Source: an uncultured Candidatus Saccharibacteria bacterium (GTDB lineage Bacteria; Patescibacteriota; Minisyncoccia; Phycocordibacterales; Phycocordibacteraceae). Taken from it: a DNA stretch of 64,000 nucleotides. The stretch covers positions 134,295 through 198,294 of the forward strand of contig CAZMTN010000002.1 in assembly GCA_964569655.1 (NCBI GenBank), read 5' to 3'. The notes under the pieces are model-generated. The model saw nothing but the letters and a program-made list of their open reading frames with translations, was not told the origin of the DNA and ran no database searches. The position numbers were made by a program, and so were the translations under genes. Below are positions 28,714 to 62,303 of this stretch, one piece after another; within the stretch, counting starts at the first letter, position 1, and the number at the start of each line of letters is the position of its first letter.

Positions 28714-29544
28714 TTATACGGCCATCGGGGCTTTTATGGGAGGGTGGGACTCGTATCCCTCGAGGCGGATGTCGTCCATGGTGAACTTAGATATATCCTT
28801 CACCTCCGGGTTGAGCCAGAGTTTGGGGAGCGGGAGCGGCTCGCGGGAGAGCTGCTCCGTTACGGCATCGAAATGATTCTTATAGATGTGGGTATCCCCG
28901 AGCGTATGGATGAACTCGCCGGCCTTGAGGCCCGTCACCTGCGCCACCATATGGAGAAGGAGAGAATAGGAGGCGATGTTGAACGGGACGCCAAGGAAGA
29001 GGTCCGCGCTCCTTTGATACATCTGGAGCGAGAGCTTCCCGTCCGCGACGAAGAACTGGAAGAAGATGTGGCAGGGCGGCAAGGCCATCTGATCGAGCTC
29101 CCCGGGATTCCAGGCCATCACGATGAGGCGGCGGCTCGAGGGATCCTTCTTAATCATCTCCACTACGTCGGAGATCTGGTCGAGGGTGGTGCCGTCCGGG
29201 CGCATCCAGCTGCGCCACTGCACGCCGTAGATGCGGCCGAGGTCTCCCGGGTACTTCGCCTTCGGGTTCCAGTAGTCGGCGGTGCCGTTCGCGGTCCAGA
29301 TGGTCTTCTCGGACTCATTGAGCTCCTTCAGGCGGTTGTCGTCGCTCGAGCCTTCGAGGAACCAGAGGAGTTCGCTTTTGACCGCCTTGAAGGCGAGCTT
29401 CTTGGTGGTTACGGCCGGGAAGCCGTCCTCCATATTGAAGCGCATCTGGGCGCCGAAGAGCGCCCGGGTGCCTGTTCCTGTGCGATCAGAACGATCTGTG
29501 CCCTCATCCATCACTTTGCGCATGAGGTCGAGGTAGGTCTTCAT
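28714..29544 (-). CDS. thyA: thymidylate synthase (ThyA)
   Basis: start at [16 protein letters not shown]...DRTGTGT (the ORF extends to 30213 in frame); catalytic Cys region PPCH; 276 aa. Confidence 0.9.
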
Positions 29545-29562
29545 TACGGGTATACTACCATC
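29545..29562. promoter_or_regulatory. 18-bp divergent intergenic core between the thyA and tmk start codons, containing a palindromic GTATAC with overlapping -10-like hexamers (TATACT on plus, TAGTAT on minus)
   Basis: tacgggtatactaccatc; each -10-like hexamer ends 7-8 nt before the respective ATG, implying leaderless mRNAs. Confidence 0.45.
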
Positions 29563-30255
29563 ATGCAAAAAGGCGTCTTCGTAGTCCTCGACGGGCTTGA
29601 CGGGTCCGGCAAAGCGACGCAGACCAGGCTCCTCAAGGAGCGGTTCGAGAAGGACGGCACCCCGTACGAGACCATCGATTTCCCCTCGTATGACCGCACC
29701 GTCTTCGGGAAGCTGCTCGGCGAGGCGCTCGCCGGGAAGCGCGGTGACTTCCTCCATGTGGATCCGCGCATCGGCTCGACGCTCTATGCCCTCGACCGCA
29801 TGGAGATGTCTTCCACCATCTGCGGCTGGCTGAGTGAAGGGAAGGCGGTGATCGCGGACCGCTTTACGAGCTCTAACCAGATCCATCAGGGCGGGAAGAT
29901 CGAGGACATCAAGGACCGCGACGAGTTCCTCAACTGGCTCGACACCATGGAGCACGAAGTATTGAAGGTGCCGCGTCCGGATGCGGTCATCTATCTGAGG
30001 GTCCCGATCGAGACGAGCGCGCAGCTCCTGCGCGAGAAGCGCGCGGCGAAGAACCGCATCCTGAAAGACGGCGAGCAGGACACGGTGGAGCGCGACACGG
30101 AGTACGTGGCCCGGAGCTACGAGTCCGCCCAGTATCTCGCGGAGACCCGTCCGAACTGGCATGTCGTCGATTGCATGCAGGGCGCTGAGATCCGTACGCC
30201 CGCCTCTATACATGAGGATGTCTACAATATCGTGCGCGGTATACTCCTGTCATGA
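29563..30255 (+). CDS. tmk: thymidylate kinase
   Basis: start at [20 protein letters not shown] (P-loop); the ORF extends upstream to 28744 only as read-through frame; 230 aa. Confidence 0.88.
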
Positions 30256-34422: not shown

Positions 34423-37400
34423 ATGGAGAAATCAGAGGCGGCGCTCCGGGAAGAGAAGATCCTCCAGTTCTGGGAGGATCGAGGCATCTTTAAGAAGTCC
34501 CTGGAGAAGCCTTCGCCGAAAGGGGAGTTCGTCTTCTACGAAGGTCCGCCTACCGCGAACGGGCGCCCCGGCATCCATCACCTCGAGTCTCGAGCGTTCA
34601 AGGACGCCATCCCGCGCTATAAGACCATGCGCGGCTACCGCGTCCCGCGCCGCGCCGGCTGGGACACGCACGGCCTCCCGGTAGAGCTCGAGGTGGAGAA
34701 GGAGCTCGGGTTCTCGGGGAAGAAGGAGATCGAGACCTACGGCATCGCGGCGTTCAACCGCAAATGCCGCGAGAGCGTGCTCCGCTACATCGGCGACTGG
34801 GAAGTCTTCACGAAGCGCATGGGCTACTGGGTGGACGCGTCCAAGGCGTACTTCACCTTCGATGCCTCCTATATGGAAGCGGTGTGGGGCGTGTTCAAGA
34901 CGGCAGCGGACTCCGGCCGCCTCTACAAGGATTACAAGGTGGTGCCGTGGTGCCCTAGATGCGAGACGGCGCTCTCCTCGCACGAACTCGCGCAAGGATA
35001 CGAGGACGTCTCGGACCTCTCGGTGACAGCGAAGTTCGAGCTCGTCGACGAGCCAGGTACCTACGTCGTCGCCTGGACCACGACGCCGTGGACGCTTCCG
35101 GGGAACGTCGGCCTCGCGGTGGGTCCGAACATCAAGTACGGCATTTACATAAAGGAAGGCGTGAAGGTCATCGTCGCGGACGCGCGCGCAAGCGTGCTCG
35201 GCGAAGGCTGGGAGCGGAGTTCGGACGCGCCGGACCTCGTCGGCAAGGCATACAAGCCGCTCTACGATTTCCTCTCGCCGCTCGCGGAAGGGAAGGAGAA
35301 GGAGAATCTGCAGAACGCGTGGAAGATCTACGCGGCTGATTTCGTAACTACCGAGGACGGTACCGGCGTGGTGCACACGGCAGTGATGTACGGCCAGGAC
35401 GACTTCGCGCTCGGCCAGAAGGTAGGTTTGCCGAAGGTGCATCTTGTCGCGCCGAACGGCCGCTACGTATCCGGCACCGGCTTCCTCGAGAACCGCTTCG
35501 TCCGGGACGAGGAGGTAGCGGTGGATATCATCAAGGATCTCGCGGGCCGCGGGCTCCTCTTCAGCAAGGCGAAGTACCAGCACACGTATCCGTTCTGCTG
35601 GCGCTGCAAGACCGCGCTCATCTATTACGCGCGCGATTCGTGGTACTTCCGCATGACGGATCTCGCGGGGGAGCTTTCGAAGGAGAACAAAGGCATCCAC
35701 TGGGAGCCGAGCCATTTCCGCGACGGCCGCATGGGCGAGTGGCTCGCGAACGTGAAGGACTGGGCGATTTCGCGTGAGCGCTACTGGGCGACGCCGCTTC
35801 CGGTATGGCGGAGCGAGGATGGGGATCAAGTTGTCATCGGATCGGTGGAGGAGTTGAAGGCGCGTACGAAGAAGAGCGGAAATACGTACTTCTTCATGCG
35901 CCACGGCCAGTCCGAGACGAATGTCCGAAAAATCGCTAGCGTCGACGCGGAATCGAAGTACCCGCTCACGGCGAAGGGGCGGGGGCAGGCAGTGGCCGCT
36001 GCGAAGAAGCTCAGCGGGGTGACGCGCATCTATACCTCGCCGGTGCTCCGCGCGCGTGAGACCGCAGAGATCGTCGCTGAGGAGGTCGGATTCCCGAAGG
36101 AAGAGATCATCGTCGACGATCGGCTCCGCGAGTATGGATTCGGCGATCTCGAAGGGAAGTCGATTACCGAGTTCCAGAGGATGCAGGAAGGGCTCGGCTA
36201 CGCGGATCCGGTCCCGGGCGGGGAGAGCTATCAGGATGTGAAGAATCGCGTCGGCGATTTCCTCTATGAGATCGAGACCGCGCTCGCGGGCGAGACCGTG
36301 CTCATCGTGACCCACGGCGCAGTGAACGAGGTGCGCGAGGCGCTGGCTTCGGGCGCCGATAAGAAGGTCTCGAAGGAGCTTGTCGATTCCGGGTACGTGG
36401 AAGCGGGCACCGTCTCCCCGCTTGCATTCGTCCCGCTCCCGCACAACGAGCGCTACGAGCTCGACCTCCATCGCCCGTACATAGATGATGTGGTACTCCT
36501 TTCAGATTCCGGGAAAGCCATGCGCCGCACGCCAGAGGTTATGGACGTCTGGTTCGACTCAGGCGCCATGCCGTTCGCGCAGAACGCGAAGGATCGGAAG
36601 CCTGGATCCTTGAAGGACTATTTCGATACCGTGCCGTACCCGGGTCAGTACATCAGCGAAGCGATAGACCAGACGCGCGGTTGGTTCTACACCCTGCTCG
36701 CAGTCGGCGTGCTCATGGGGCGCGGCGCATCCTATAAGAACGTGATCTGCCTCGGGCACCTCCTCGATGCCGAAGGGAAGAAGATGTCGAAGTCGAAGGG
36801 GAACGTGGTGGTGCCGGGCCCCGAGATGGACAAGTGGGGCGTCGATACCATCCGCTTCTGGATGTACAGCGTGAATCAGCCCGGAGACAGCAAGAATTAC
36901 GACGAGAAGACCATGAAGGAAGCGTCGCGTACGCTCTCGTGGCTCACCAACAGCGCGAAATTCTACGAGCTCTTCGCTGCGGATAAGAAAGGGGGAGCCA
37001 AGAAGCAGTTCATCGACCGCTGGATGGAGCAGCGCGTGGCTGACACGGTGCGCGCCGTCACCGAGGACCTCGAGGGCTACAAGCTCTATGAGGCGGCTAC
37101 CGAGGTCGCCTCGCTCTGCGAGGACCTCTCGCAGTGGTACGTGCGCCGCATCCGCGATCGCGCGAAGGAGGGGGACGCTGCCGCAATCGGCACGCTGCGC
37201 CATGCGCTCAAGTCGATCGCGCTGCTTGTCGCGCCGTTCGCGCCGTTCATCGCGGAGGACGTGTATCAGGTGGTAAAGCAGGAGACGGATCCGGAAAGCG
37301 TGCATCTCGCGCAGTGGCCGGTCGCGAAGGAATCATTCCTTTCGCGGTGGTTCAATAAGGACACGTCGGTCGCTGAGATGAAGAGGGTGCGCTCGCTCGC

Positions 37401-37755
37401 ATCCGAGGCGCTCATGCTCCGCCAGAAGGCGGGCAGCAAGGTGCGTCAGCCGCTCGCGAGCCTATCCATCCCAGGCACGCTCTCTGCGGGAGCGCAGGCG
37501 CTGCTCGCTGAAGAAGTGAACGTGAAGCAGATCATCTGCAACGCCCCCGAGCTTGCTCTCGACACCAACCTCACCACCGAGCTCATCCGCGAAGGGGACG
37601 AGCGCGAGATGCTCCGTGCGGTCGCGGAAGCACGAAAGACGCTCGGCCTCTCGCCGAAGGATAGGATGCGCGTCGACGTGAACGCGGAGGGCGCATACGC
37701 GGTCGAGCTCTCCACCGGCACGCAGAAGTTCGATCTCGTCCCTGATGCGGCATAA
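34423..37755 (+). CDS. ileS: isoleucyl-tRNA synthetase with an inserted histidine-phosphatase (PGAM-like) domain
   Basis: 1110 aa; HIGH region (PTANGRPGIHH), CP1 editing domain, WAISRERYWATPLPVW, DVWFDSG, KMSKS (KMSKSKGN); about 230 aa inserted between the WxISRxR and DVWFDSG motifs carrying RHGQSETN and THGAV motifs. Confidence 0.9.
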   Translation: MEKSEAALREEKILQFWEDRGIFKKSLEKPSPKGEFVFYEGPPTANGRPGIHHLESRAFKDAIPRYKTMRGYRVPRRAGWDTHGLPVELEVEKELGFSGKKEIETYGIAAFNRKCRESVLRYIGDWEVFTKRMGYWVDASKAYFTFDASYMEAVWGVFKTAADSGRLYKDYKVVPWCPRCETALSSHELAQGYEDVSDLSVTAKFELVDEPGTYVVAWTTTPWTLPGNVGLAVGPNIKYGIYIKEGVKVIVADARASVLGEGWERSSDAPDLVGKAYKPLYDFLSPLAEGKEKENLQNAWKIYAADFVTTEDGTGVVHTAVMYGQDDFALGQKVGLPKVHLVAPNGRYVSGTGFLENRFVRDEEVAVDIIKDLAGRGLLFSKAKYQHTYPFCWRCKTALIYYARDSWYFRMTDLAGELSKENKGIHWEPSHFRDGRMGEWLANVKDWAISRERYWATPLPVWRSEDGDQVVIGSVEELKARTKKSGNTYFFMRHGQSETNVRKIASVDAESKYPLTAKGRGQAVAAAKKLSGVTRIYTSPVLRARETAEIVAEEVGFPKEEIIVDDRLREYGFGDLEGKSITEFQRMQEGLGYADPVPGGESYQDVKNRVGDFLYEIETALAGETVLIVTHGAVNEVREALASGADKKVSKELVDSGYVEAGTVSPLAFVPLPHNERYELDLHRPYIDDVVLLSDSGKAMRRTPEVMDVWFDSGAMPFAQNAKDRKPGSLKDYFDTVPYPGQYISEAIDQTRGWFYTLLAVGVLMGRGASYKNVICLGHLLDAEGKKMSKSKGNVVVPGPEMDKWGVDTIRFWMYSVNQPGDSKNYDEKTMKEASRTLSWLTNSAKFYELFAADKKGGAKKQFIDRWMEQRVADTVRAVTEDLEGYKLYEAATEVASLCEDLSQWYVRRIRDRAKEGDAAAIGTLRHALKSIALLVAPFAPFIAEDVYQVVKQETDPESVHLAQWPVAKESFLSRWFNKDTSVAEMKRVRSLASEALMLRQKAGSKVRQPLASLSIPGTLSAGAQALLAEEVNVKQIICNAPELALDTNLTTELIREGDEREMLRAVAEARKTLGLSPKDRMRVDVNAEGAYAVELSTGTQKFDLVPDAA

Positions 37756-53165: not shown

Positions 53166-53492
53166 TCACGGCACGTAGACCGATGTCTGCTTGGTAATGC
53201 TCCTCCCGAATCGGTCTGACGCGGTTAGGGTAAGTATAGCGCTCCCCCGGGGAAGCACGATGAGGCGCGAAAAGTTGCCTGCCTCGTCTATGAGGAGGGG
53301 TGACCCGTTAAGGGAGAGTGAATTCACCCGGGAGGCGACCCCGGCGACCTCAACCATGCCGCCGAGCGCGGCAGCCCCTTCCTGGGGGGTGGTGAGGACC
53401 AGGTCCGGGCCCGCAAGCAGCGGAGCGGCCTCCAGGGCCCCGTACCCGACCAGGATGACGAGCACGACGGCGATGAGGGAGCGGGTGAGCAT
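53166..53492 (-). CDS. small membrane-anchored hypothetical protein between ftsK and recA
   Basis: 108 aa; N-terminal TM helix. Confidence 0.4.
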   Translation of the reverse strand: MLTRSLIAVVLVILVGYGALEAAPLLAGPDLVLTTPQEGAAALGGMVEVAGVASRVNSLSLNGSPLLIDEAGNFSRLIVLPRGSAILTLTASDRFGRSITKQTSVYVP

Positions 53493-55670: not shown

Positions 55671-55838
55671 GCACAGATTTTACCATTGTATTCCTCAATC
55701 CGTCGCGCAGCCGCAAGGTTTATTGAAGAATAGCCACTCGCGCATTGGGACACGTTACCCGGGCAATAAAAGACTTGCGTCCGTGATGCGAAAGGACATA
55801 TACTTACGGACAAGTGAGGCAAATTCTTAGAGACAAAT

Positions 55839-56594
55839 ATGGAAAATAAAGGACAGAATAGTGTCTCAAATACAAACTCGAGAGTGAGTTCCGTAGACAG
55901 TTTCGTCCTAGAAAAAGGCATATTCTCCAACATATTCGGAAAGGACATAAAGAGGATTTACATATACAAGAAGGCGGAGCGATTGGCCCGTGCAGTCCAC
56001 CTGGTCGCTCCGGCATTCAGCTACTCGCCGTCCTTGAAGCAGCGTGCGGACGAGCTCGCCATGGCGCTCGTGGATGCGGCCGTCCTTGAGCCCCACGTAG
56101 CTCGCCCGGCGCTCTCTAAGGAACTCCTCTCGCTTTCGAGCCTCCTCTCGATCGCTCGCACCAGTAACCTCCTCTCCCCGATGAATGCGGATCTGATAGC
56201 CAGGGAAGCGCACCTGCTTCTTGAGGAGGTGGCTACCTATGAGGAGCCGCGCGTCTCGTTCGATGCGATGCCTTCGCTCGCGGAGCTCGCGAAATCATCG
56301 CCGAGGAGAGAGGCGGTCGCGTCCAGGACGGAGCCAAAGAAGCCAGCAAAACTCGTCTCGACCCCGTCCATTCCTAAAGGACATCTATCGGACAATCCTC
56401 AGAAGGAAGGGCGGCGAGAGGCGGTGCTCTCCATTCTCAGGTCCAAAGGGCCGTCTCATATAAAGGATATTTCCATGCTGATCCGGGACGTGAGCGAGAA
56501 GACCATCCAGCGCGAACTGCAGGCCCTGGTGGACGAGAGGAGGGTAACTAAGGAAGGGAAGCGTCGCTGGACCAAATATACCCTCGCGGACTAG
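55839..56594 (+). CDS. hypothetical regulator-like protein with C-terminal winged-helix DNA-binding domain (lower-GC island)
   Basis: 251 aa; C-terminal KDISMLIRDVSEKTIQRELQALVDERRV wHTH-like; AT-richer codon usage than neighbours. Confidence 0.45.
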   Translation: MENKGQNSVSNTNSRVSSVDSFVLEKGIFSNIFGKDIKRIYIYKKAERLARAVHLVAPAFSYSPSLKQRADELAMALVDAAVLEPHVARPALSKELLSLSSLLSIARTSNLLSPMNADLIAREAHLLLEEVATYEEPRVSFDAMPSLAELAKSSPRREAVASRTEPKKPAKLVSTPSIPKGHLSDNPQKEGRREAVLSILRSKGPSHIKDISMLIRDVSEKTIQRELQALVDERRVTKEGKRRWTKYTLAD

Positions 56595-57089
56595 CGGTTT
56601 TCCCGCCTAATCGGGGCTCATCTGGCCTTCATGCTGCTGATTGACTAAAGGGCCCAAAAGCTATAGATTTAGCTTGTGGGGAAACAATAGCCATAGGGGA
56701 GGTATGGGACCGGCAACGGTCTCTTCATGCTATATCCCCGGGGCCTGTGTTATCCACATTAAATACGTAAGGAATGGGCGGCTCGTCCGTATACTTACGT
56801 GTACTGACTCGGGGTAAGACCCGATCAGGGGACTTTGAAAACTGAATAGGGAAACTGGTTCAGTCGCGTAAGCAATTACGCGCGTAGCCGTCTACGTAAA
56901 TGGCGGCACATACAGACATGGAAGTCCTCCCAGACACGGATGCATGACCGGACGAACAATTTTGCCAGCTAGCCGATGGGGCGTGAGTCGATAAAGCGTC
57001 CTGTCGGATAGTGTGAAAGTGCGCTTCGTGCGAAACGCAAATTACCACAAAGGGCGTGTGACGGGGCGGCGATTTAGATCGCTCCTCGC
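56595..57089. other. about 495-nt ORF-free, hairpin-rich noncoding region (candidate structured RNA or long 5' leader)
   Basis: no ORF over 80 aa; several GNRA-capped hairpins (gaccg-gcaa-cggtc; gcgtaa-gcaa-ttacgc; cgtag-ccgt-ctacg; gcgat-ttag-atcgc); lower GC. Confidence 0.35.
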
Positions 57090-59009
57090 ATGTCTCTAAC
57101 ATTAATTAACAAAACGATTGTTATGACTAGCTCAAACACAAACGCTGTTGCGAAATTCGCAGCTGTCGTCGCTGGTCTCGGACTCGTAGCTATGTCGTTC
57201 GCTTCTTTTGCTCCGGCAAAGGCAGCAACGCAGGCTGAGCTCGAGGCACAGATCGCGGCCCTCATGGCCCAGATCGCAGCACTCTCAGGCGGATCATCCG
57301 CTTCTATGACCTTCACGATGGATCTCACGATCGGATCGTCAGGCGCAGAAGTAACCGCACTTCAGAACTGGCTTATCAGCAAGGGATACTCGATCCCGGC
57401 AGGCGCAACTGGATACTTCGGTGCCCAGACGCAGGCTGCACTTGCTGCATACCAGGCAGCTAACGGCATCTCACCGGCAGCAGGATACTTTGGCCCGATC
57501 ACTCGCGCTAAGGTAAACGCTTCAGGTGGATCAACCGGCGGCTCGACCGGAGGTTCTACCGGCGGTTCTACCGGCGGCCTCTCAGGCGGCGCAGGTTCTA
57601 TCGACAGCTTCGACGAAATCGGATCTCTCTCTAACGAGCACGTTGGTGAGGACGAAGAGGACGTAGAAGTTGCAGGCCTCGAGATCGAGGTTGACGATGG
57701 ATCTGACATTGAGATCACTGCAGTTCGCCTCGACTTCTCAACCCAGCCTGGAAACGATGATCTCGATGAATTCATCACCGAGGTATCTATCTGGTGCGAC
57801 GGCGAGGAGTTCGCTCGCGTAGATGCAGATGAGTTCAATGATGACAACGACTGGACGAAGACCGTTTCCCTCGACGATGGCTGTGTCATCGATGCAGGTG
57901 ACACGGGCGAGCTCACTGTCGCTGTTAGCGGTGTAAACAACGTTGACACTGGCGATGCAGGTGATGACTGGGGTCTTGATTTCGTAAGCGTCCGCTTTGT
58001 GGATGCTGACGGAGCAACGATCACTGAGACCACCGGCACCGATGAGTTCCTCTTCGATGTCGAGACCTTCGCTGACGCAGCTGACGCTGAGCTCTCTATC
58101 TCTCTCACCGATGGTGACGATGCAGATGACATCAACGATGCTCACGTGATCAACGTTGACGACAACGATGAGACTGAAGCAGATATTCTTGCCTTCACCG
58201 CTGAGGTTGAGGGAGACTCTGACCTCACTGTCGACGATATTGTTGTTGAATTCGTAGTTACGGGCGCAGCAGGTCTTGAGAACATGGCAGCTACTGCCTA
58301 CCTCATGCTTGACGGCGAAGTAGTCGGCGAGGAAAACATCCCTGCTGACGAAACCGTAACCTTCGACGACCTCGATCTTGAACTCGAGGCAGGCGAAGAG
58401 TATGAGTTCACTGTCACCGTAGACCTTCTTGAAGGCCTCACTGACGGCTGGACCATCATGGCAGAAGTCACTGACGATGAGACTGATCTCTGGGACGTTG
58501 AGGATGAGAGTGGTGAGGAGCTTGCAGACGCAGCCAAGACTGGAACTGCTGCAGGTGACGCACATGGCGTCTACGACAGCGGAATCATGGTTGAGTTCGT
58601 CTCAGCTGATGAGAGCGTAACTTCTCCGGAGACCGGAGCAGATCGCGGAACCTTCACCATCGTCTTCGACGTGACGGCATTCGATGCTGACGCATATGTC
58701 GACGCATCTGCGATTACTGATGAGGCTGGAGGCACAACCTACCAGAACATCGTAGTGGACAATGCAGTCGGTACTGGCGTTCTTACATCGAACGCTCCTA
58801 CGGCAGCCAACGACACGTATCGTGTTCGTGAAGACCGCACTGAGCGCTTCACGCTTACGATTAACGCACCGGCTGGTGCCGATGGATTCGTCCGTGCAGC
58901 ACTCGAGAGCGTCCTCTACGCAGCAACTGCTGTTGATGGCGACCTCCTCTACACGTTCGATATGTCTGACTACAAGACGGACAGCGTTTACCTCGACACC
59001 AACGCCTAA
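57090..59009 (+). CDS. secreted acidic surface protein: N-terminal signal/anchor, coiled-coil, PG_binding_1 domain, (GGST)n linker, large Asp/Glu-rich beta region
   Basis: 639 aa (possible start at 57121); PG-binding motif SGAEVTALQNWLISKGY...GYFGAQTQAALAAYQAANGI; very acidic body. Confidence 0.65.
   Translation: MSLTLINKTIVMTSSNTNAVAKFAAVVAGLGLVAMSFASFAPAKAATQAELEAQIAALMAQIAALSGGSSASMTFTMDLTIGSSGAEVTALQNWLISKGYSIPAGATGYFGAQTQAALAAYQAANGISPAAGYFGPITRAKVNASGGSTGGSTGGSTGGSTGGLSGGAGSIDSFDEIGSLSNEHVGEDEEDVEVAGLEIEVDDGSDIEITAVRLDFSTQPGNDDLDEFITEVSIWCDGEEFARVDADEFNDDNDWTKTVSLDDGCVIDAGDTGELTVAVSGVNNVDTGDAGDDWGLDFVSVRFVDADGATITETTGTDEFLFDVETFADAADAELSISLTDGDDADDINDAHVINVDDNDETEADILAFTAEVEGDSDLTVDDIVVEFVVTGAAGLENMAATAYLMLDGEVVGEENIPADETVTFDDLDLELEAGEEYEFTVTVDLLEGLTDGWTIMAEVTDDETDLWDVEDESGEELADAAKTGTAAGDAHGVYDSGIMVEFVSADESVTSPETGADRGTFTIVFDVTAFDADAYVDASAITDEAGGTTYQNIVVDNAVGTGVLTSNAPTAANDTYRVREDRTERFTLTINAPAGADGFVRAALESVLYAATAVDGDLLYTFDMSDYKTDSVYLDTNA
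57531..57590 (+). repeat. in-frame tandem repeat encoding a (GGST)n flexible linker
   Basis: tcaaccggcggctcgaccggaggttctaccggcggttctaccggcggc. Confidence 0.6.
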
Positions 59010-59056
59010 CTCACGTTAAGCGCTGACTGAAGGTAAAACCTGAAAGTTAAGTAAGC

Positions 59057-59086
59057 AAAAACCACCCTTCGGGGTGGTTTTTGCTT
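59057..59086 (+). terminator. rho-independent terminator
   Basis: aaaaaccaccc-ttcg-gggtggttttt. Confidence 0.7.
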
Positions 59087-59205
59087 TGTTGCGCTATCCC
59101 CAATTCCTTATTCAGACGACACGGCAATACCTTAATGGGCAAGTACACTGCAGGAAGGTATGGGATAACGTATTTAATAGTCACTTTACCAATAACTCTA
59201 TAAAC

Positions 59206-60774
59206 ATGAATCAGGTATTTTCATCCCCTGAGCACGCGCGTCGAACTGCGACAACACTGCTTGCAGCAGCGGCACTCTTTGCTCTCGTGCCTTTCACGGC
59301 GTTCGCGGCAGGAGTAATTGAAGACGAAGAAACTGTTGCGAATGTAGCGGCATCTACTATCCCCGCCATTACCTTCGAAGGAGGGGCCGCAGCTACGAAT
59401 GCAACTTCGACGCTTACTGCGGTCACCAAGGCGAATCTCGCCAATGGTGATTACTTTATTATTTCAGATAGCGCACTTGCGGCAGACGCGGTTTGTTTCT
59501 ATTTTGACGTCGATAATACTCTTGCAAATGACGGGGGAACAGCTGCTGCATGTCAGGCAGCAGATGGTGTAGTAGGAGGAGTCGAGGTGAGCGTTAGTGC
59601 GGACACGACGGCGATCGAAGTCGCTGGGCGCATTCATACGGCGATCACCGCGCAGGTCGCGACCCTTCTCGTCACGTCAACGAATAACGGGGACGGCACG
59701 CTTCTCCTGACTGCAGATACTGCAGGCACGGCAGGCAACATCGCGCTGAACGCTAACTACATGACCGAAGCGGTCACAAACGCGGGCTTTACCCTTACAG
59801 CTCTTACGGGCGGGGCAGCAGCGGTAGCAGCAACGGATACCATAGTCATTCCGGCAGGAATCGTTGCCGCTGCGGCAGATCAGTCAATAACGATCGACGG
59901 CGTCGTCATTGCTCTTGGGGCAACCGCTAAGACAGCGGCAGAAGTCGCTGAAGTCATCGCAGACACGGTTCTTACTGGCGGAACGGTATTCGATGTCACT
60001 CCGTACGATATCGTCGATACAGGTGCGTCTCTTACAATCACAAAAAACACTACCGGCACAGGGGGCAATGGCGCACTTACCATTGCGGATGCAAGTTACG
60101 GCGCCAAAGCGCAAGTAGTGACGTTTACCCCGACAGGAGTCAGCGGCAATGAAAGCTTCAAGGTCACTATCAATGGCAATCAATACAATGTAAGAGGCGC
60201 AACAACGGTCCAGGAAGCCGTTGAGGGGCTTGTGGCCGATATGGCAGAAGATGCTGACGTAACGTGTATTGAGGACAACGTTAAGGTCACCTGCACCGCA
60301 GACGTTCCTGGCACAGCGTTCACCTTTGGCGCAGCAACCACAGGATCAAGTAGTGGCGGCGGCGGTGGTGGCGGAAGCTCAGGCAACAACAATGATGATG
60401 ACGAAGATGAGGACGAGGATTCTTCGAACACTGACATGGACGCAGAAATTGAAAAGCTCCTCGCTCAGGTTAAGGCGCTCCAGGCACAGATGCAGGCCGG
60501 AACCACGAACGGTATCGGCGCAGGCGTCTCTGCCTTCGCTCGCGATCTCGACATGGGGGCAACGGGCTCTGACGTCATGGCGCTCCAGGCATACCTCAAC
60601 GCGAAGGGCTTCATGGTCGCAGAGACCGGTCCTGGCTCGAAGGGTATGGAGACCGAGATGTTCGGGGGCCTTACGCAGGCAGCTCTCGCCAAGTTCCAGG
60701 CATCTGTCGGCATTTCGCCGGCAGTCGGGTACTTCGGTCCGAAGACGCGTGCGTACGTCGCAGCCAACCCGTAA
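59206..60774 (+). CDS. secreted surface protein paralog: signal peptide, Ala/Thr/Gly-rich beta region, poly-Gly/acidic linker, coiled-coil, C-terminal PG_binding_1 domain
   Basis: 522 aa from MNQVFSS; C-terminal GSDVMALQAYLNAKGF...GGLTQAALAKFQASVGISPAVGYFGPKTRAYV; same coiled-coil plus PG-binding module as 57090..59009 but at the opposite terminus. Confidence 0.65.
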   Translation: MNQVFSSPEHARRTATTLLAAAALFALVPFTAFAAGVIEDEETVANVAASTIPAITFEGGAAATNATSTLTAVTKANLANGDYFIISDSALAADAVCFYFDVDNTLANDGGTAAACQAADGVVGGVEVSVSADTTAIEVAGRIHTAITAQVATLLVTSTNNGDGTLLLTADTAGTAGNIALNANYMTEAVTNAGFTLTALTGGAAAVAATDTIVIPAGIVAAAADQSITIDGVVIALGATAKTAAEVAEVIADTVLTGGTVFDVTPYDIVDTGASLTITKNTTGTGGNGALTIADASYGAKAQVVTFTPTGVSGNESFKVTINGNQYNVRGATTVQEAVEGLVADMAEDADVTCIEDNVKVTCTADVPGTAFTFGAATTGSSSGGGGGGGSSGNNNDDDEDEDEDSSNTDMDAEIEKLLAQVKALQAQMQAGTTNGIGAGVSAFARDLDMGATGSDVMALQAYLNAKGFMVAETGPGSKGMETEMFGGLTQAALAKFQASVGISPAVGYFGPKTRAYVAANP

Positions 60775-60795
60775 AGAGACTAGTTAGTGCAAGAC

Positions 60796-60824
60796 AAAAC
60801 AACCGCTACGAGCGGTTGTTTTGC
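60796..60824 (+). terminator. rho-independent terminator
   Basis: aaaacaaccgc-tacga-gcggttgtttt followed by TATAAT. Confidence 0.7.
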
Positions 60825-60837
60825 TATAATCGATGCA

Positions 60838-61310
60838 TGAAGAACCCATATATCATCGCGGGAGTCATCATCATCGCGCTTATCGGCATCTATGCGGTCT
60901 CGCACTGGAGTACGGACGAGCGTACGGCACGCGAGGTGGCCCTGACCTGCACCACGGACATGGCGACGGAATACCACATCCATCCGGTGCTCCGGATCGT
61001 CATTAACGGAGAACAGATTCTGATCCCGGAAAACGTCGGCATATCCCGTGGCTGCATGATGTCCCTTCATACCCATACGCCAGACGGCATCATCCATGTG
61101 GAATCACCGGTACAGCGGGACTTCACGCTCGGCGATTTCTTTGCGGTCTGGGGCCAGACCTTCAATGAAGGCCAGATCTTCGAGCACGAAGCTAATGAGC
61201 AGAATGTTATTACTATGACCGTGAACGGGGAAGCGGTAGACACGTTCGAGGACACTATCCTCAGGGACGACGACCAGATCCTGATCGTGTACGGACCGGT
61301 AGTACAATAG
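60838..61310 (+). CDS. hypothetical membrane-anchored His-rich protein (157 aa)
   Basis: start at MKNPYII; N-terminal TM; HIHPVLRI and LHTHTPDGIIHVE motifs suggest a metal site. Confidence 0.45.
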
Positions 61311-61465
61311 GAGGGTCCATGAAGTACTTCCTTCATTTCCTGAAGTTCACGAGCGGCTTCGCCCTCGTGCTCGCGTTCTCGCTGGTCATCATCCAGGTCG
61401 CTGGGATGGCGTAGTGAGGCTTCTCAATTCCTAACTCATACCACAGTCCCGGCTAATCAAAGCAA

Positions 61466-62017
61466 ATGATAAAACCAACTGATATCAAGGAGGAAATAAG
61501 GAAGAGGCCACCCCTGCAAAGGAAAGATGCATTAAAACATTACGAAGGCGTACGTATAAGCTGGGAAGTGAAGTTTAAGGGAGTTGCAGCACACTCTTCC
61601 CCTGAAAAACTAATAATAAGAACCGAACCGGCGGGAACTGCTATGTATCCCGACATATATTTTCAGGTTCCTGAAGAGGATCGCGCTCAAATAAATCTTC
61701 TTCACGAGGATGCCCCAATTTGGATCGATGGCGAAATTTTCAGTCTCAAAAACGATGGTCTCCAAGTACATATAAATCCCAATAGGATTTCTTTCAGTAG
61801 GAAGGATGAGAAGAATTCCCCTGACGATTCAAGGAGAAGCATCTACAACATTATGCAAGTTCACCACGGGAACGGTGACAATGTAGGGCTAAATAAAAAT
61901 GAAGAGAATCATATGTCGCATAAGCAGTGGTATGAAAAACCAATGGGAATGATAATTCTCGGGATTGTAGTTACGGTCGTAGGTACTGGGATAGTCTATT
62001 ATCTCGGCTGGCAATAG
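61466..62017 (+). CDS. hypothetical tail-anchored protein (183 aa) with AT-rich foreign-looking codon usage
   Basis: ORF; C-terminal TM helix GMIILGIVVTVVGTGIVYYLGW; GC visibly below the genome background. Confidence 0.45.
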   Translation: MIKPTDIKEEIRKRPPLQRKDALKHYEGVRISWEVKFKGVAAHSSPEKLIIRTEPAGTAMYPDIYFQVPEEDRAQINLLHEDAPIWIDGEIFSLKNDGLQVHINPNRISFSRKDEKNSPDDSRRSIYNIMQVHHGNGDNVGLNKNEENHMSHKQWYEKPMGMIILGIVVTVVGTGIVYYLGWQ

Positions 62018-62139
62018 TTAGGGTTACCATGTCCAGCGCTTACCCAAGTGCATTCGAGCTCGCTTTCCCAAATCTCAAGAATTCCTCAAGAAAACCTAAA
62101 GATGGGTAAAAGGCCCAGCTAGCGCTCCCATTCCGTCTC

Positions 62140-62303
62140 TGGTATAGTCCCTCCTGTACGGACCGAAGACAGCGGGTAGCCCGAAAGGGCGATAAATCCT
62201 GCCGAGGGACGAAAGGGTAGGGAAACCTCCCGGTCGACTGTCTCCTCGCATCGGTCCCCGTTTGGGGACCTTTGCCGTTTCGTACAGAAACAACAAACAC
62301 ACA
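62140..62303 (+). promoter_or_regulatory. ribosomal protein L10 (rplJ) leader-like structured 5' UTR
   Basis: about 160-nt GC-rich hairpin-rich leader (cccgaaaggg; gacgaaaggg; ggtccccgtttggggacc) with no Shine-Dalgarno before rplJ. Confidence 0.4.

Follow-up and report, generated by a model that had tools for sequence, protein, structure and literature searches.

A low-GC region between ftsK and rplJ, at 55.7-62.0 kb of a 64,000-nucleotide (nt) stretch of DNA from an uncultured bacterium (contig CAZMTN010000002.1 of assembly GCA_964569655.1, positions 134,295 to 198,294; hereafter, the window), is interpreted here, with moderate confidence, as a vertically inherited locus for a surface layer (S-layer)-type protein of a high-GC Paceibacterium. 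The locus comprises a regulator gene (open reading frame 1, ORF1), a long mRNA leader, a gene for a wall-anchored surface protein (protA) and a variable slot, occupied in the window by protB, ORF4, a small ORF and ORF5. This interpretation is based on the synteny of the locus in related genomes, the codon signature of protA, covariation in the leader RNA, the variability of the slot, and published expression data and S-layer predictions. An earlier reading of the window, made from the letters alone (hereafter, the sequence-only reading), had placed ORFs in this region at coordinates that we recovered on re-checking.

Conservation of the locus in Paceibacteria

The window comes from a high-GC member of Paceibacteria, within the Candidate Phyla Radiation (CPR) or Patescibacteria, as the taxonomic range of the protA relatives described below indicates. 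The gene order of the locus was seen first in three syntenic contigs and is found in about 50 of the 80 loci that were fetched: recA, a 108-amino-acid (aa) ORF and ftsK lie on one strand, and ORF1, a long gap, protA, a variable stretch, rplJ and rplL run divergently from them. The syntenic loci belong to Kaiser-, Wolfe-, Colwell-, Vogel-, Taylor-, Nomura- and Campbellbacteria-type genomes. In 62 loci, a protA-family gene with a signal peptide lies 232-905 nt beyond the end of ORF1. More than 1000 homologs of protA were found; the matches listed are full length (~630-710 aa) and 45-66% identical, and the named homologs among them are all from Patescibacteria/Paceibacterota and annotated just as "peptidoglycan-binding protein". 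In a scan of one genome per species, relatives of protA were present in at least 258 GTDB species representatives.

ORF1, which lies upstream of protA in all 62 loci, encodes a basic protein (isoelectric point, pI, 9.7) whose N-terminal domain, helical and conserved, is joined by a disordered linker to a winged helix-turn-helix (HTH) at the C-terminus (aa ~190-250); the residues KT.QRE...G.RRW.Y are invariant. The HTH_DeoR profile (PF08220) matches 20 of 32 orthologs at E<=0.01, the best at 1.2e-6, and the copy in the window is sub-threshold. The N-terminal domain matches no family, and PHROGs and NCBIfam returned nothing useful. Because it is constantly placed just upstream of the protA promoter, ORF1 is a candidate transcription regulator of protA.

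Two features of the neighbourhood recur in the relatives. The 108-aa ORF (53166-53492 of the window, minus strand) separates recA from ftsK in nearly all of the related loci; it has an N-terminal hydrophobic segment, shows 26-61% identity and is without a family match. A 23S(-5S) rRNA gene is found in relatives at a distance of 3-7 kb downstream of rplL (L003, 15909-21382; L009, from 19306; L012, from 18807); it is unlinked from the 16S gene and contains a group I intron as well as LAGLIDADG ORFs. Many related assemblies stop 4-8 kb past protA, and their contigs probably break at this rRNA gene.

protA encodes a putative major surface-layer protein

According to the family alignment, the protA product consists of a signal peptide (..FAPAKA/AT, with the A-x-A ending kept across the family), a short helix, a peptidoglycan-binding domain (PGBD), a Gly/Ser/Thr linker, an invariant LxGGAGS motif and an acidic body of ~470 aa. 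The PGBD matches PG_binding_1 (PF01471) at aa 84-141 with 45.8 bits (E 6.8e-12), the Pfam gathering score being 23 bits. In the AlphaFold model (predicted local distance difference test, pLDDT, 81), a helix at aa 48-66 precedes the PGBD, which is a three-helix bundle like that of solved PGBDs, and a disordered linker leads to an all-beta body (aa ~170-636) of approximately three acidic beta-sandwich blocks parted by pLDDT dips. The body contains 26.6% Asp+Glu and 2.5% Lys+Arg, and the pI is ~4. No catalytic domain was matched in protA, the remaining ~470 aa being beta-sandwich. The signal peptide and the PGBD provide the export signal and envelope anchor that mark the S-layer class, and we regard protA as a putative major surface-layer protein. 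The earlier suggestion of secreted, peptidoglycan-anchored, S-layer-like proteins is reasonable and gains independent backing from the present data.

The codon usage of protA points to very high expression, with selection acting on translation. In four-fold boxes, A/U-ending codons replace G-ending ones (GCG, 0.03 vs 0.53 in bulk genes; GTG, 0.07 vs 0.41), and the two-fold boxes are C/G-ending to the same extent as in bulk genes or more (AAC 0.91, AAG 0.86, ATC 0.82, CAG 1.0). The codons ATA, AGA/AGG, GGG, CTG, CGG, CTA and TTR are not used at all. In codon space, the nearest neighbour of protA is rplJ/rplL, which is shifted in the same direction. The signature recurs across the 47 loci compared: in 45 of them, A/T-ending four-fold codons are more frequent in protA than in the neighbouring recA/ftsK (mean, +0.19), and in 37 the same holds for G-ending Lys/Glu/Gln codons; rplJ/rplL shift likewise. 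For the abundance expected of an S-layer protein, the codon bias, which matches or exceeds that of rplJ/rplL and recurs in 45 of the 47 loci, is an indirect indication, as are the published expression data below. Together with the conserved position, the regulator and the leader, it points to the family with a PGBD and three beta-sandwiches as a major and probably abundant surface component.

Published work is consistent with this assignment. In three Paceibacteria, the five secreted-protein genes with the highest expression include genes for PGBD proteins that have signal peptides, and the top-expressed one, PMX_810_sub_00350 (2079 nt), carries a PGBD (Kuroda et al., PMC10936435). The SymProFold preprint describes a putative S-layer class of Patescibacteria with three immunoglobulin (Ig)-like domains, whose members include proteins of Yanofskybacteria (GMX57981.1, 692 aa), Nealsonbacteria DGGOD1a (UMX47672.1, 727 aa) and Vogelbacteria (A0A1G2QP48, 643 aa) (bioRxiv 10.1101/2024.05.28.596244); a p6 lattice of 13.5 nm was predicted for the class, which is close to the S-layer of ~13 nm that has been seen on CPR cells (supplement of the same preprint). 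We equate GMX57981.1 with PMX_810_sub_00350 by length (692 aa and 2079 nt). Like protA, the members of the class come from Patescibacteria, measure ~640-730 aa and have a signal peptide and about three Ig-like or beta-sandwich domains, and the Yanofskybacteria member also carries a PGBD. At 628-639 aa (family, ~630-710 aa), protA has the size and, by an approximate count, the domain number of the class. It therefore fits the class by taxon, size, signal peptide, PGBD and domain count, and is likened to it by description, not by alignment. In this sense, protA would belong to a class of proteins already proposed in silico as S-layer proteins. The SymProFold work differs from ours in giving no description of the locus, regulator, leader RNA or codon bias, and its lattice is a prediction; protA is known here from its sequence and a single-chain model. 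Vogelbacteria homologs of protA include A0A1G2QG06 (L018) and A0A1G2QEF6.

S-layer proteins of Gram-positive bacteria are secreted, acidic and abundant; one end of the chain binds the wall through a dedicated module, and the opposite end carries the lattice domains. They are held to the wall non-covalently, by SLH domains (Bacillus and Thermus type), by CWB2 (Clostridioides SlpA) or as in Lactobacillus Slp. Their genes have a long 5' untranslated region (UTR) and a strong terminator, their outer domains evolve fast, and accessory wall proteins share their anchor module. protA resembles these systems in its predicted secretion, acidity and probable abundance, and in module layout, long 5' UTR, terminator, fast outer domains and anchor-sharing accessory proteins. 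However, its anchor is a short helix with PG_binding_1 rather than SLH, CWB2 or LysM, and its ~445-nt leader with an rRNA-leader-like element and its reduced-genome CPR host set it apart.

Alternatively, protA and protB could be adhesins with which an episymbiotic CPR cell attaches to host or prey, the PGBD binding the wall of a bacterial host or serving just as an anchor, and no self-assembling layer being formed. Host attachment was indeed proposed for the highly expressed PGBD proteins by Kuroda et al. (PMC10936435), and an interaction surface could account for a body that evolves fast and discordantly with its flanks and for the variability of the second protein in the slot. However, the hosts in that study are archaea, which lack peptidoglycan. 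Furthermore, a codon signature at least as strong as in ribosomal protein genes suggests bulk structural abundance, the protein is encoded at one conserved locus that is near-universal across Paceibacteria whatever the type of host, and its uniform size, acidic composition and single-module anchor resemble those of S-layer proteins. We consider a purely adhesive role rather unlikely; note that adhesin and S-layer functions are not mutually exclusive.

Base composition and the question of horizontal acquisition

As had been noticed in the sequence-only reading, the GC content of the region lies below the high-GC background. The background is ~0.61, with 2-kb windows outside the dip ranging from 0.58 to 0.655, compared with 0.516-0.571 at 55-62 kb; the dip spans 55.7-62.2 kb, and the lowest 500-nt value, 0.424, falls at 61.5-62.0 kb. 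The GC content at third codon positions (GC3) is 0.90 in recA, 0.84 in ftsK and 0.76-0.86 in the other housekeeping genes of the window (which include polA, ileS, metG, argS, pilB and thyA), 0.78 in rplL and 0.70 in rplJ. In the region itself, it is 0.69 in ORF1, 0.55 in protA, 0.54 in protB, 0.72 in ORF4 and 0.42 in ORF5.

The low GC has three causes: the expression-driven codon bias of protA, the non-coding leader and spacers, and the atypical accessory genes protB and especially ORF5. The low GC3 of protA would be a by-product of translational selection in a high-GC genome; a foreign origin of its low GC was rejected in view of the codon-box analysis, the shift being selective for four-fold boxes and ribosomal-protein-like. 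In protB the two-fold boxes are AT-shifted too, and its origin is ambiguous. The pattern of ORF5 is opposite to that of protA (ATA 0.53, AGG 0.60, CAA 0.71).

The sequence-only reading had offered horizontal acquisition of the entire region as one explanation. The composition is indeed atypical: GC and GC3 fall below those of the flanks, protB is AT-shifted in two-fold boxes, ORF5 combines rare codons with absence from relatives, and the protA-versus-flank GC3 gap of the window (-0.31) is the most extreme among 52 loci. For protA, however, this deviation reflects a codon bias of a selective kind rather than foreign origin: it concerns four-fold boxes, leaves zero rare codons and recurs in 45 of 47 loci. 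Moreover, ORF1, the leader and protA are found between ftsK and rplJ in about 50 of the 80 related loci, and hallmarks of mobility were not found, as family searches detected no integrase and no phage-family or mobile-element protein, no direct repeat flanks the region, and no tRNA lies between 23 kb and 64 kb of the window. It is thus very unlikely that the whole of 55.7-62.0 kb is a horizontally acquired genomic island. Such an origin is plausible for the accessory part alone, that is, for ORF5 and perhaps protB and ORF4. As a caution, a low-GC "island" in a high-GC genome may arise by translational selection without horizontal transfer.

The earlier proposal of a fast-evolving cell-envelope module fared better, in that the identity of the protA body is decoupled from that of the flanks. 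A second protA paralog follows protA in seven loci, and differential loss of such tandem copies may explain the discordance. Tandem paralogs are seen in L018 (3-3886) and also in L007, L042, L044, L058, L062 and L067.

A structured leader RNA precedes protA

The 495-nt gap between ORF1 and protA, described before as ORF-free and structured, indeed contains no credible ORF, is conserved and harbours covarying hairpins; it appears to be a conserved structured mRNA leader of ~445 nt. The leader is preceded by a sigma-70-type promoter, whose -35 (ATTGAC) and -10 (TAnnnT) elements are conserved in 35 related loci. In hairpin D, 91.7% of the cells are paired across 32 sequences and 13 of the 17 pairs show double changes, while none of 500 shuffles was as good and slid controls reached 32-52% pairing; in hairpin E, compensatory changes affect 10 of 10 predicted pairs. 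When 1.37 Mb was searched with a covariance model of hairpin D, one match per locus was obtained, on the plus strand and within this gap, in 36 loci. The sole other match was a weak copy (26 bits) upstream of the tandem protA paralog in L062. Rfam contained no family matching the gap at E<=1. The TTGAAA/TTGACA block was also considered as a second promoter and dismissed, since it lacks a -10 element at a workable distance.

One conserved block of the leader is a candidate boxA. Its core, CnTTGAhA, occurs in 56 of the 62 protA leaders, the background frequency being 0.24 per kb and strand; this looser core was used because the third position is variable and insertions occur, a strict regular expression for the block matching 13 of 62 leaders. 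The core with a (G/C)AATA-like 3' part is also found once in each of the three 23S rRNA leaders examined (L003, 15806; L009, 19212; L012, 18595); these are leaders of related loci, the window's own rRNA leader lying outside the window. The CnUUGAhA block further resembles the rRNA boxA elements of Gram-positive bacteria. BoxA sites outside rRNA operons are known, among them that in the leader of E. coli suhB (Baniulyte et al. 2017, PMC5725501). The protA leader is similar to the suhB type in that a short RNA motif is common to rRNA leaders and the 5' UTR of a protein gene; however, CnUUGAhA differs from the E. coli boxA consensus, and the target is a surface protein, not a Nus factor. We infer that the leader recruits Nus factors, or stabilises a heavily transcribed mRNA, or both.

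The gap also contains TTATCCACA, the single perfect DnaA-box sequence in the 64 kb, with no further box within one mismatch nearby. GGTTATCCACAT (56748-56759), in which it is embedded, is exactly conserved as a single plus-strand copy in at least 22 loci, and ftsK and ORF1 diverge at this point. These features would suit a function of the gap as DNA, be it as a replication origin or as a promoter under DnaA control, instead of an RNA leader. We find this most improbable. The box is single, always on the plus strand and ~73 nt downstream of the start site of the conserved promoter; there is no box cluster, no AT-rich unwinding element and no sign change in GC skew; and covariation in the neighbouring hairpins is explicable by RNA-level selection alone. 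An oriC with a DnaA-box cluster was rejected likewise, given the single box, the lack of a skew switch and the complementarity of the box to the 5' end of the transcript. TTATCCACA is better read as part of an RNA stem, being single, strand-fixed and transcribed and matching, as its complement, the conserved GUGGnAAC at the 5' end of the leader. A regulatory DnaA site is still conceivable.

The stretch before the protA ATG is A/U-rich and without a Shine-Dalgarno sequence. The starts of protA (57097-57122, A/U-rich) and rplJ (62270-62303, A/C-rich) are alike in lacking this sequence and in lying behind stretches expected to be unstructured. Set against the perfect GGAGGG of the small ORF at 61319, they suggest that two modes of translation initiation may operate in this genome.

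protB and the variable slot downstream of protA

The protA-rplJ interval is the variable part of the locus and measures 0.4-6 kb. A second PGBD protein of varying type lies 3' of protA in ~22 loci; besides the tandem paralogs, unrelated proteins with a C-terminal PGBD follow protA in six loci, and a protB-type gene does so in five other species-level loci (L001, L002, L053, L057 and L068).

The protB product has a signal peptide or anchor helix (aa 8-26), an alpha/beta body (aa ~35-380), a poly-Gly/Ser and acidic linker, a helix (aa 409-430) and a C-terminal PGBD, which matches PF01471 at aa 453-516 with 30.9 bits (E 3.1e-7). The profile check proposed with the sequence-only reading thus gave scores above the gathering score in both proteins. 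protB also has a pI of ~4, with a body rich in Ala, Thr, Gly and Val, so the contrast drawn earlier between an Asp/Glu-rich and an Ala/Thr/Gly-rich acidic protein was accurate. The NCBI gene call for protB (P0121) gives 395 aa and no signal peptide, the Logan call (P0154) 522 aa; we adopt the 522-aa form because the Logan call and the family alignment support full length. There are 33 homologs of protB, ~10 of them full length. Its AlphaFold2 model (pLDDT 76.6) gave no significant fold match in the PDB with Foldseek; the best local resemblances, below significance, are to FliC D2/D3 and to the decoration domains on the outside of phage tail sheaths.

protA and protB have nothing in common apart from the helix and PGBD, which are 46% identical over 108 aa (E 2e-19). 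No relationship exists between the bodies, so that the term "paralogous", applied previously to the two proteins, is valid for this module and not for the bodies. Similarly, "permuted" was right in that the module sits at opposite ends, N-terminal in protA and C-terminal in protB; since the helix precedes the PGBD in both, this is a matter of module placement, not circular permutation. Nor is the arrangement an undescribed one, as had been thought, a PGBD at either end being ordinary for PF01471 proteins. The same module (47-76% identity) is attached in other Patescibacteria to a large variety of unrelated bodies, among them Big_5 and Ig-like domains, SASA esterase and peptidase M26, and would be a general wall anchor in this group. 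protB itself appears to be a surface protein that is anchored to the wall and has an accessory role.

PF01471 is typical of wall hydrolases, and weak matches to SleB and endolysins were obtained; still, it is barely credible that protA and protB are peptidoglycan hydrolases or remodelling enzymes (autolysins) with a targeting PGBD, because every enzyme-family match is confined to the PGBD, the other 470 aa of protA are beta-sandwiches without a catalytic match and the protB body has no significant match. Wall enzymes with PF01471 (SleB, the Streptomyces Zn D-Ala-D-Ala carboxypeptidase, phage endolysins and L,D-transpeptidases) have a catalytic domain attached, whereas protA and protB have none, and their PGBD would be a structural anchor after a conserved amphipathic helix rather than a targeting domain.

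Downstream of protB, ORF4 and ORF5 had been described as membrane-anchored, and a hydrophobic segment is indeed present at the N-terminus of ORF4 and the C-terminus of ORF5. Neither has a counterpart in any related locus (tblastn, 83 loci). ORF4 carries His-rich motifs and a weak beta-grasp (ThiS-like) resemblance, gave family matches below threshold alone, with nothing useful from PHROGs and NCBIfam, and seems to be specific to this lineage. ORF5 has the lowest GC3 of the region and returned nothing useful from PHROGs and NCBIfam. Its family is unnamed and sparse, with 18 representatives (E<=1e-10) out of 1.84 billion. Rare codons, absence from relatives and the sparse family make ORF5 probably a recent acquisition. 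Between the two lies a hydrophobic small ORF (MKYFLHFLKF...), absent from the sequence-only reading, with a GGAGGG Shine-Dalgarno sequence upstream. Homologs of 29-34 aa, with M-x-YF-x-HFLKF and a transmembrane stretch, occur in 9 other loci, always between the protA region and rplJ (L001, 11543-11638; L004, 12100; L008, 6716; L010, 14102; L019, 14052; L042, 14231; L045, 12042; L053, 12773; L068, 13576). This conserved ORF is unannotated in most records.

A model for the S-layer-type locus

We propose that ORF1, as a winged-HTH protein, would act as a local regulator and that the conserved sigma-70 promoter would drive the ~445-nt leader with its rRNA-leader-like, boxA-type element and covarying hairpins. 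The leader may keep transcription of the long untranslated RNA from ending early, may shield this RNA from decay, and may tune translation from the A/U-rich start region that lacks a Shine-Dalgarno sequence. protA would be exported by Sec, with the signal peptide cut after AKA, and tethered non-covalently to peptidoglycan by the N-terminal helix and PG_binding_1. The Gly/Ser/Thr linker would then project three very acidic beta-sandwich domains outward, where they would form an abundant outer protein layer, probably a lattice stabilised by Ca2+. The downstream slot would keep lineage-specific second wall-anchored proteins, here protB along with small membrane proteins.

Several points weigh against this model. 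The discordance between protA and flank identity, likely caused by in-situ allele exchange or differential loss of tandem protA paralogs, implies that "vertical" holds for the locus and not necessarily for the allele. The number of three beta-sandwich domains is approximate, as it comes from secondary structure and pLDDT dips and not from a formal parse. The identity of the candidate boxA relies on motif similarity, including that to Gram-positive boxA sequences. The link to the three-Ig class is loosened by the 643-aa Vogelbacteria entry A0A1G2QP48, which is not among the top 120 matches of a search seeded with A0A1G2QG06, in which 675-aa Vogelbacteria entries were recovered. Furthermore, the best UniRef match of the Yanofskybacteria protein is 29% identical to it and comes from Microgenomates (authors' table, PMC10936435), so this protein may come from another sequence family whose architecture is similar. 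Finally, synteny, domain content, codon pattern and RNA covariation are what was observed, whereas the lattice, the level of expression, the recruitment of Nus factors and the role of ORF1 as a regulator are inferred.

CPR bacteria account for much of bacterial diversity and have hardly been cultured, and their envelope mediates an episymbiotic lifestyle. A regular surface layer has been seen on them by electron cryo-microscopy, its protein having so far been proposed in silico alone. To this, the present data add genomic evidence: the place beside ftsK and rplJ, the ribosomal-protein-like codon bias in 47 genomes, the dedicated regulator and the structured leader. What looks new is the regulator-leader-gene cassette, the covarying leader RNA with an rRNA-leader-like motif, the cross-genome codon-bias evidence and the variable accessory slot. 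It is possible, as a tentative extension, that the leader is an undescribed, clade-wide cis-regulatory RNA that, with ORF1, borrows rRNA boxA/Nus antitermination, and that the ORF1-leader-protA cassette is the determinant of the 13-nm hexagonal S-layer of CPR. The compact anchor module, the covarying RNA element with its covariance model and the variable accessory slot offer handles for tests.

Features of the locus and of its neighbourhood

Coordinates of the features are listed in Table 1. As stated in the sequence-only reading, each of the two large genes is followed by a terminator: hairpins were found 3' of both protA and protB. The region is followed by rplJ and then rplL, and its boundary is formed by a probable L10 leader, for which Rfam RF00557 (L10_leader) scores below the gathering score of 44 bits at the position expected upstream of rplJ.

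Table 1. Features between ftsK and rplJ, in coordinates of the window
Feature	Coordinates	Strand	Remarks
ORF1	55839-56594	+	251 aa
ORF-free gap	56595-57089		495 nt; extends to 57122 (~530 nt) if protA starts at 57123
Sigma-70-type promoter	56641-56669	+	TTGACT, 17 nt, TAGATT (consensus scan)
Structured 5' leader of protA	56677-57122	+	~445 nt; conserved blocks, covariation
Leader 5' GUGGnAAC	56676-84	+	complementary to invariant GGUUAUCCACAU at 56748-59
Leader GGCCGGAAACGGCC-type hairpin	56707-21	+	conserved across 35 close loci
Leader boxA-like block, CnUUGAhA..GAAUAG	56832-49	+	conserved block
Leader hairpin D	56968-57012	+	invariant loop GUCGAUA
Leader hairpin E	57049-57096	+	compensatory changes
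protA	57090-59009	+	639 aa from 57090, where the ORF opens; probable true start ATG 57123
Terminator after protA	59053-59098	+	15-bp inverted repeat and T-rich tail; perfect 15-bp stem with 4-nt loop at 59053-59086, then TTGTTG; GGGTGG-TTTTTGCTTTG run on + strand
protB	59206-60774	+	522 aa
Terminator-like hairpin after protB	60796-60826	+	read from sequence; CAACCGC-TACGA-GCGGTTG (60796-60822), then TTTTGC; overlaps TATAAT box upstream of ORF4
ORF4	60837-61310	+	157 aa; alternative start 60816
Hydrophobic small ORF	61319-61414	+	31 aa
ORF5	61466-62017	+	183 aa
Probable rplJ (L10) leader, region boundary	62145-62285	+	RF00557, 25.7 bits, below gathering score

Two further genes of the window are worth noting. 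A 1110-aa protein of the class I tRNA-synthetase family (34423-37755, plus strand), which we take to be IleRS, Pfam being silent on the amino acid, has a complete histidine-phosphatase domain (PF00300) inserted at aa 490-638, between the halves of its catalytic domain. The 499-aa thymidylate synthase (28714-30213, minus strand) bears an N-terminal extension of ~224 aa with no Pfam match at E<=1e-5.

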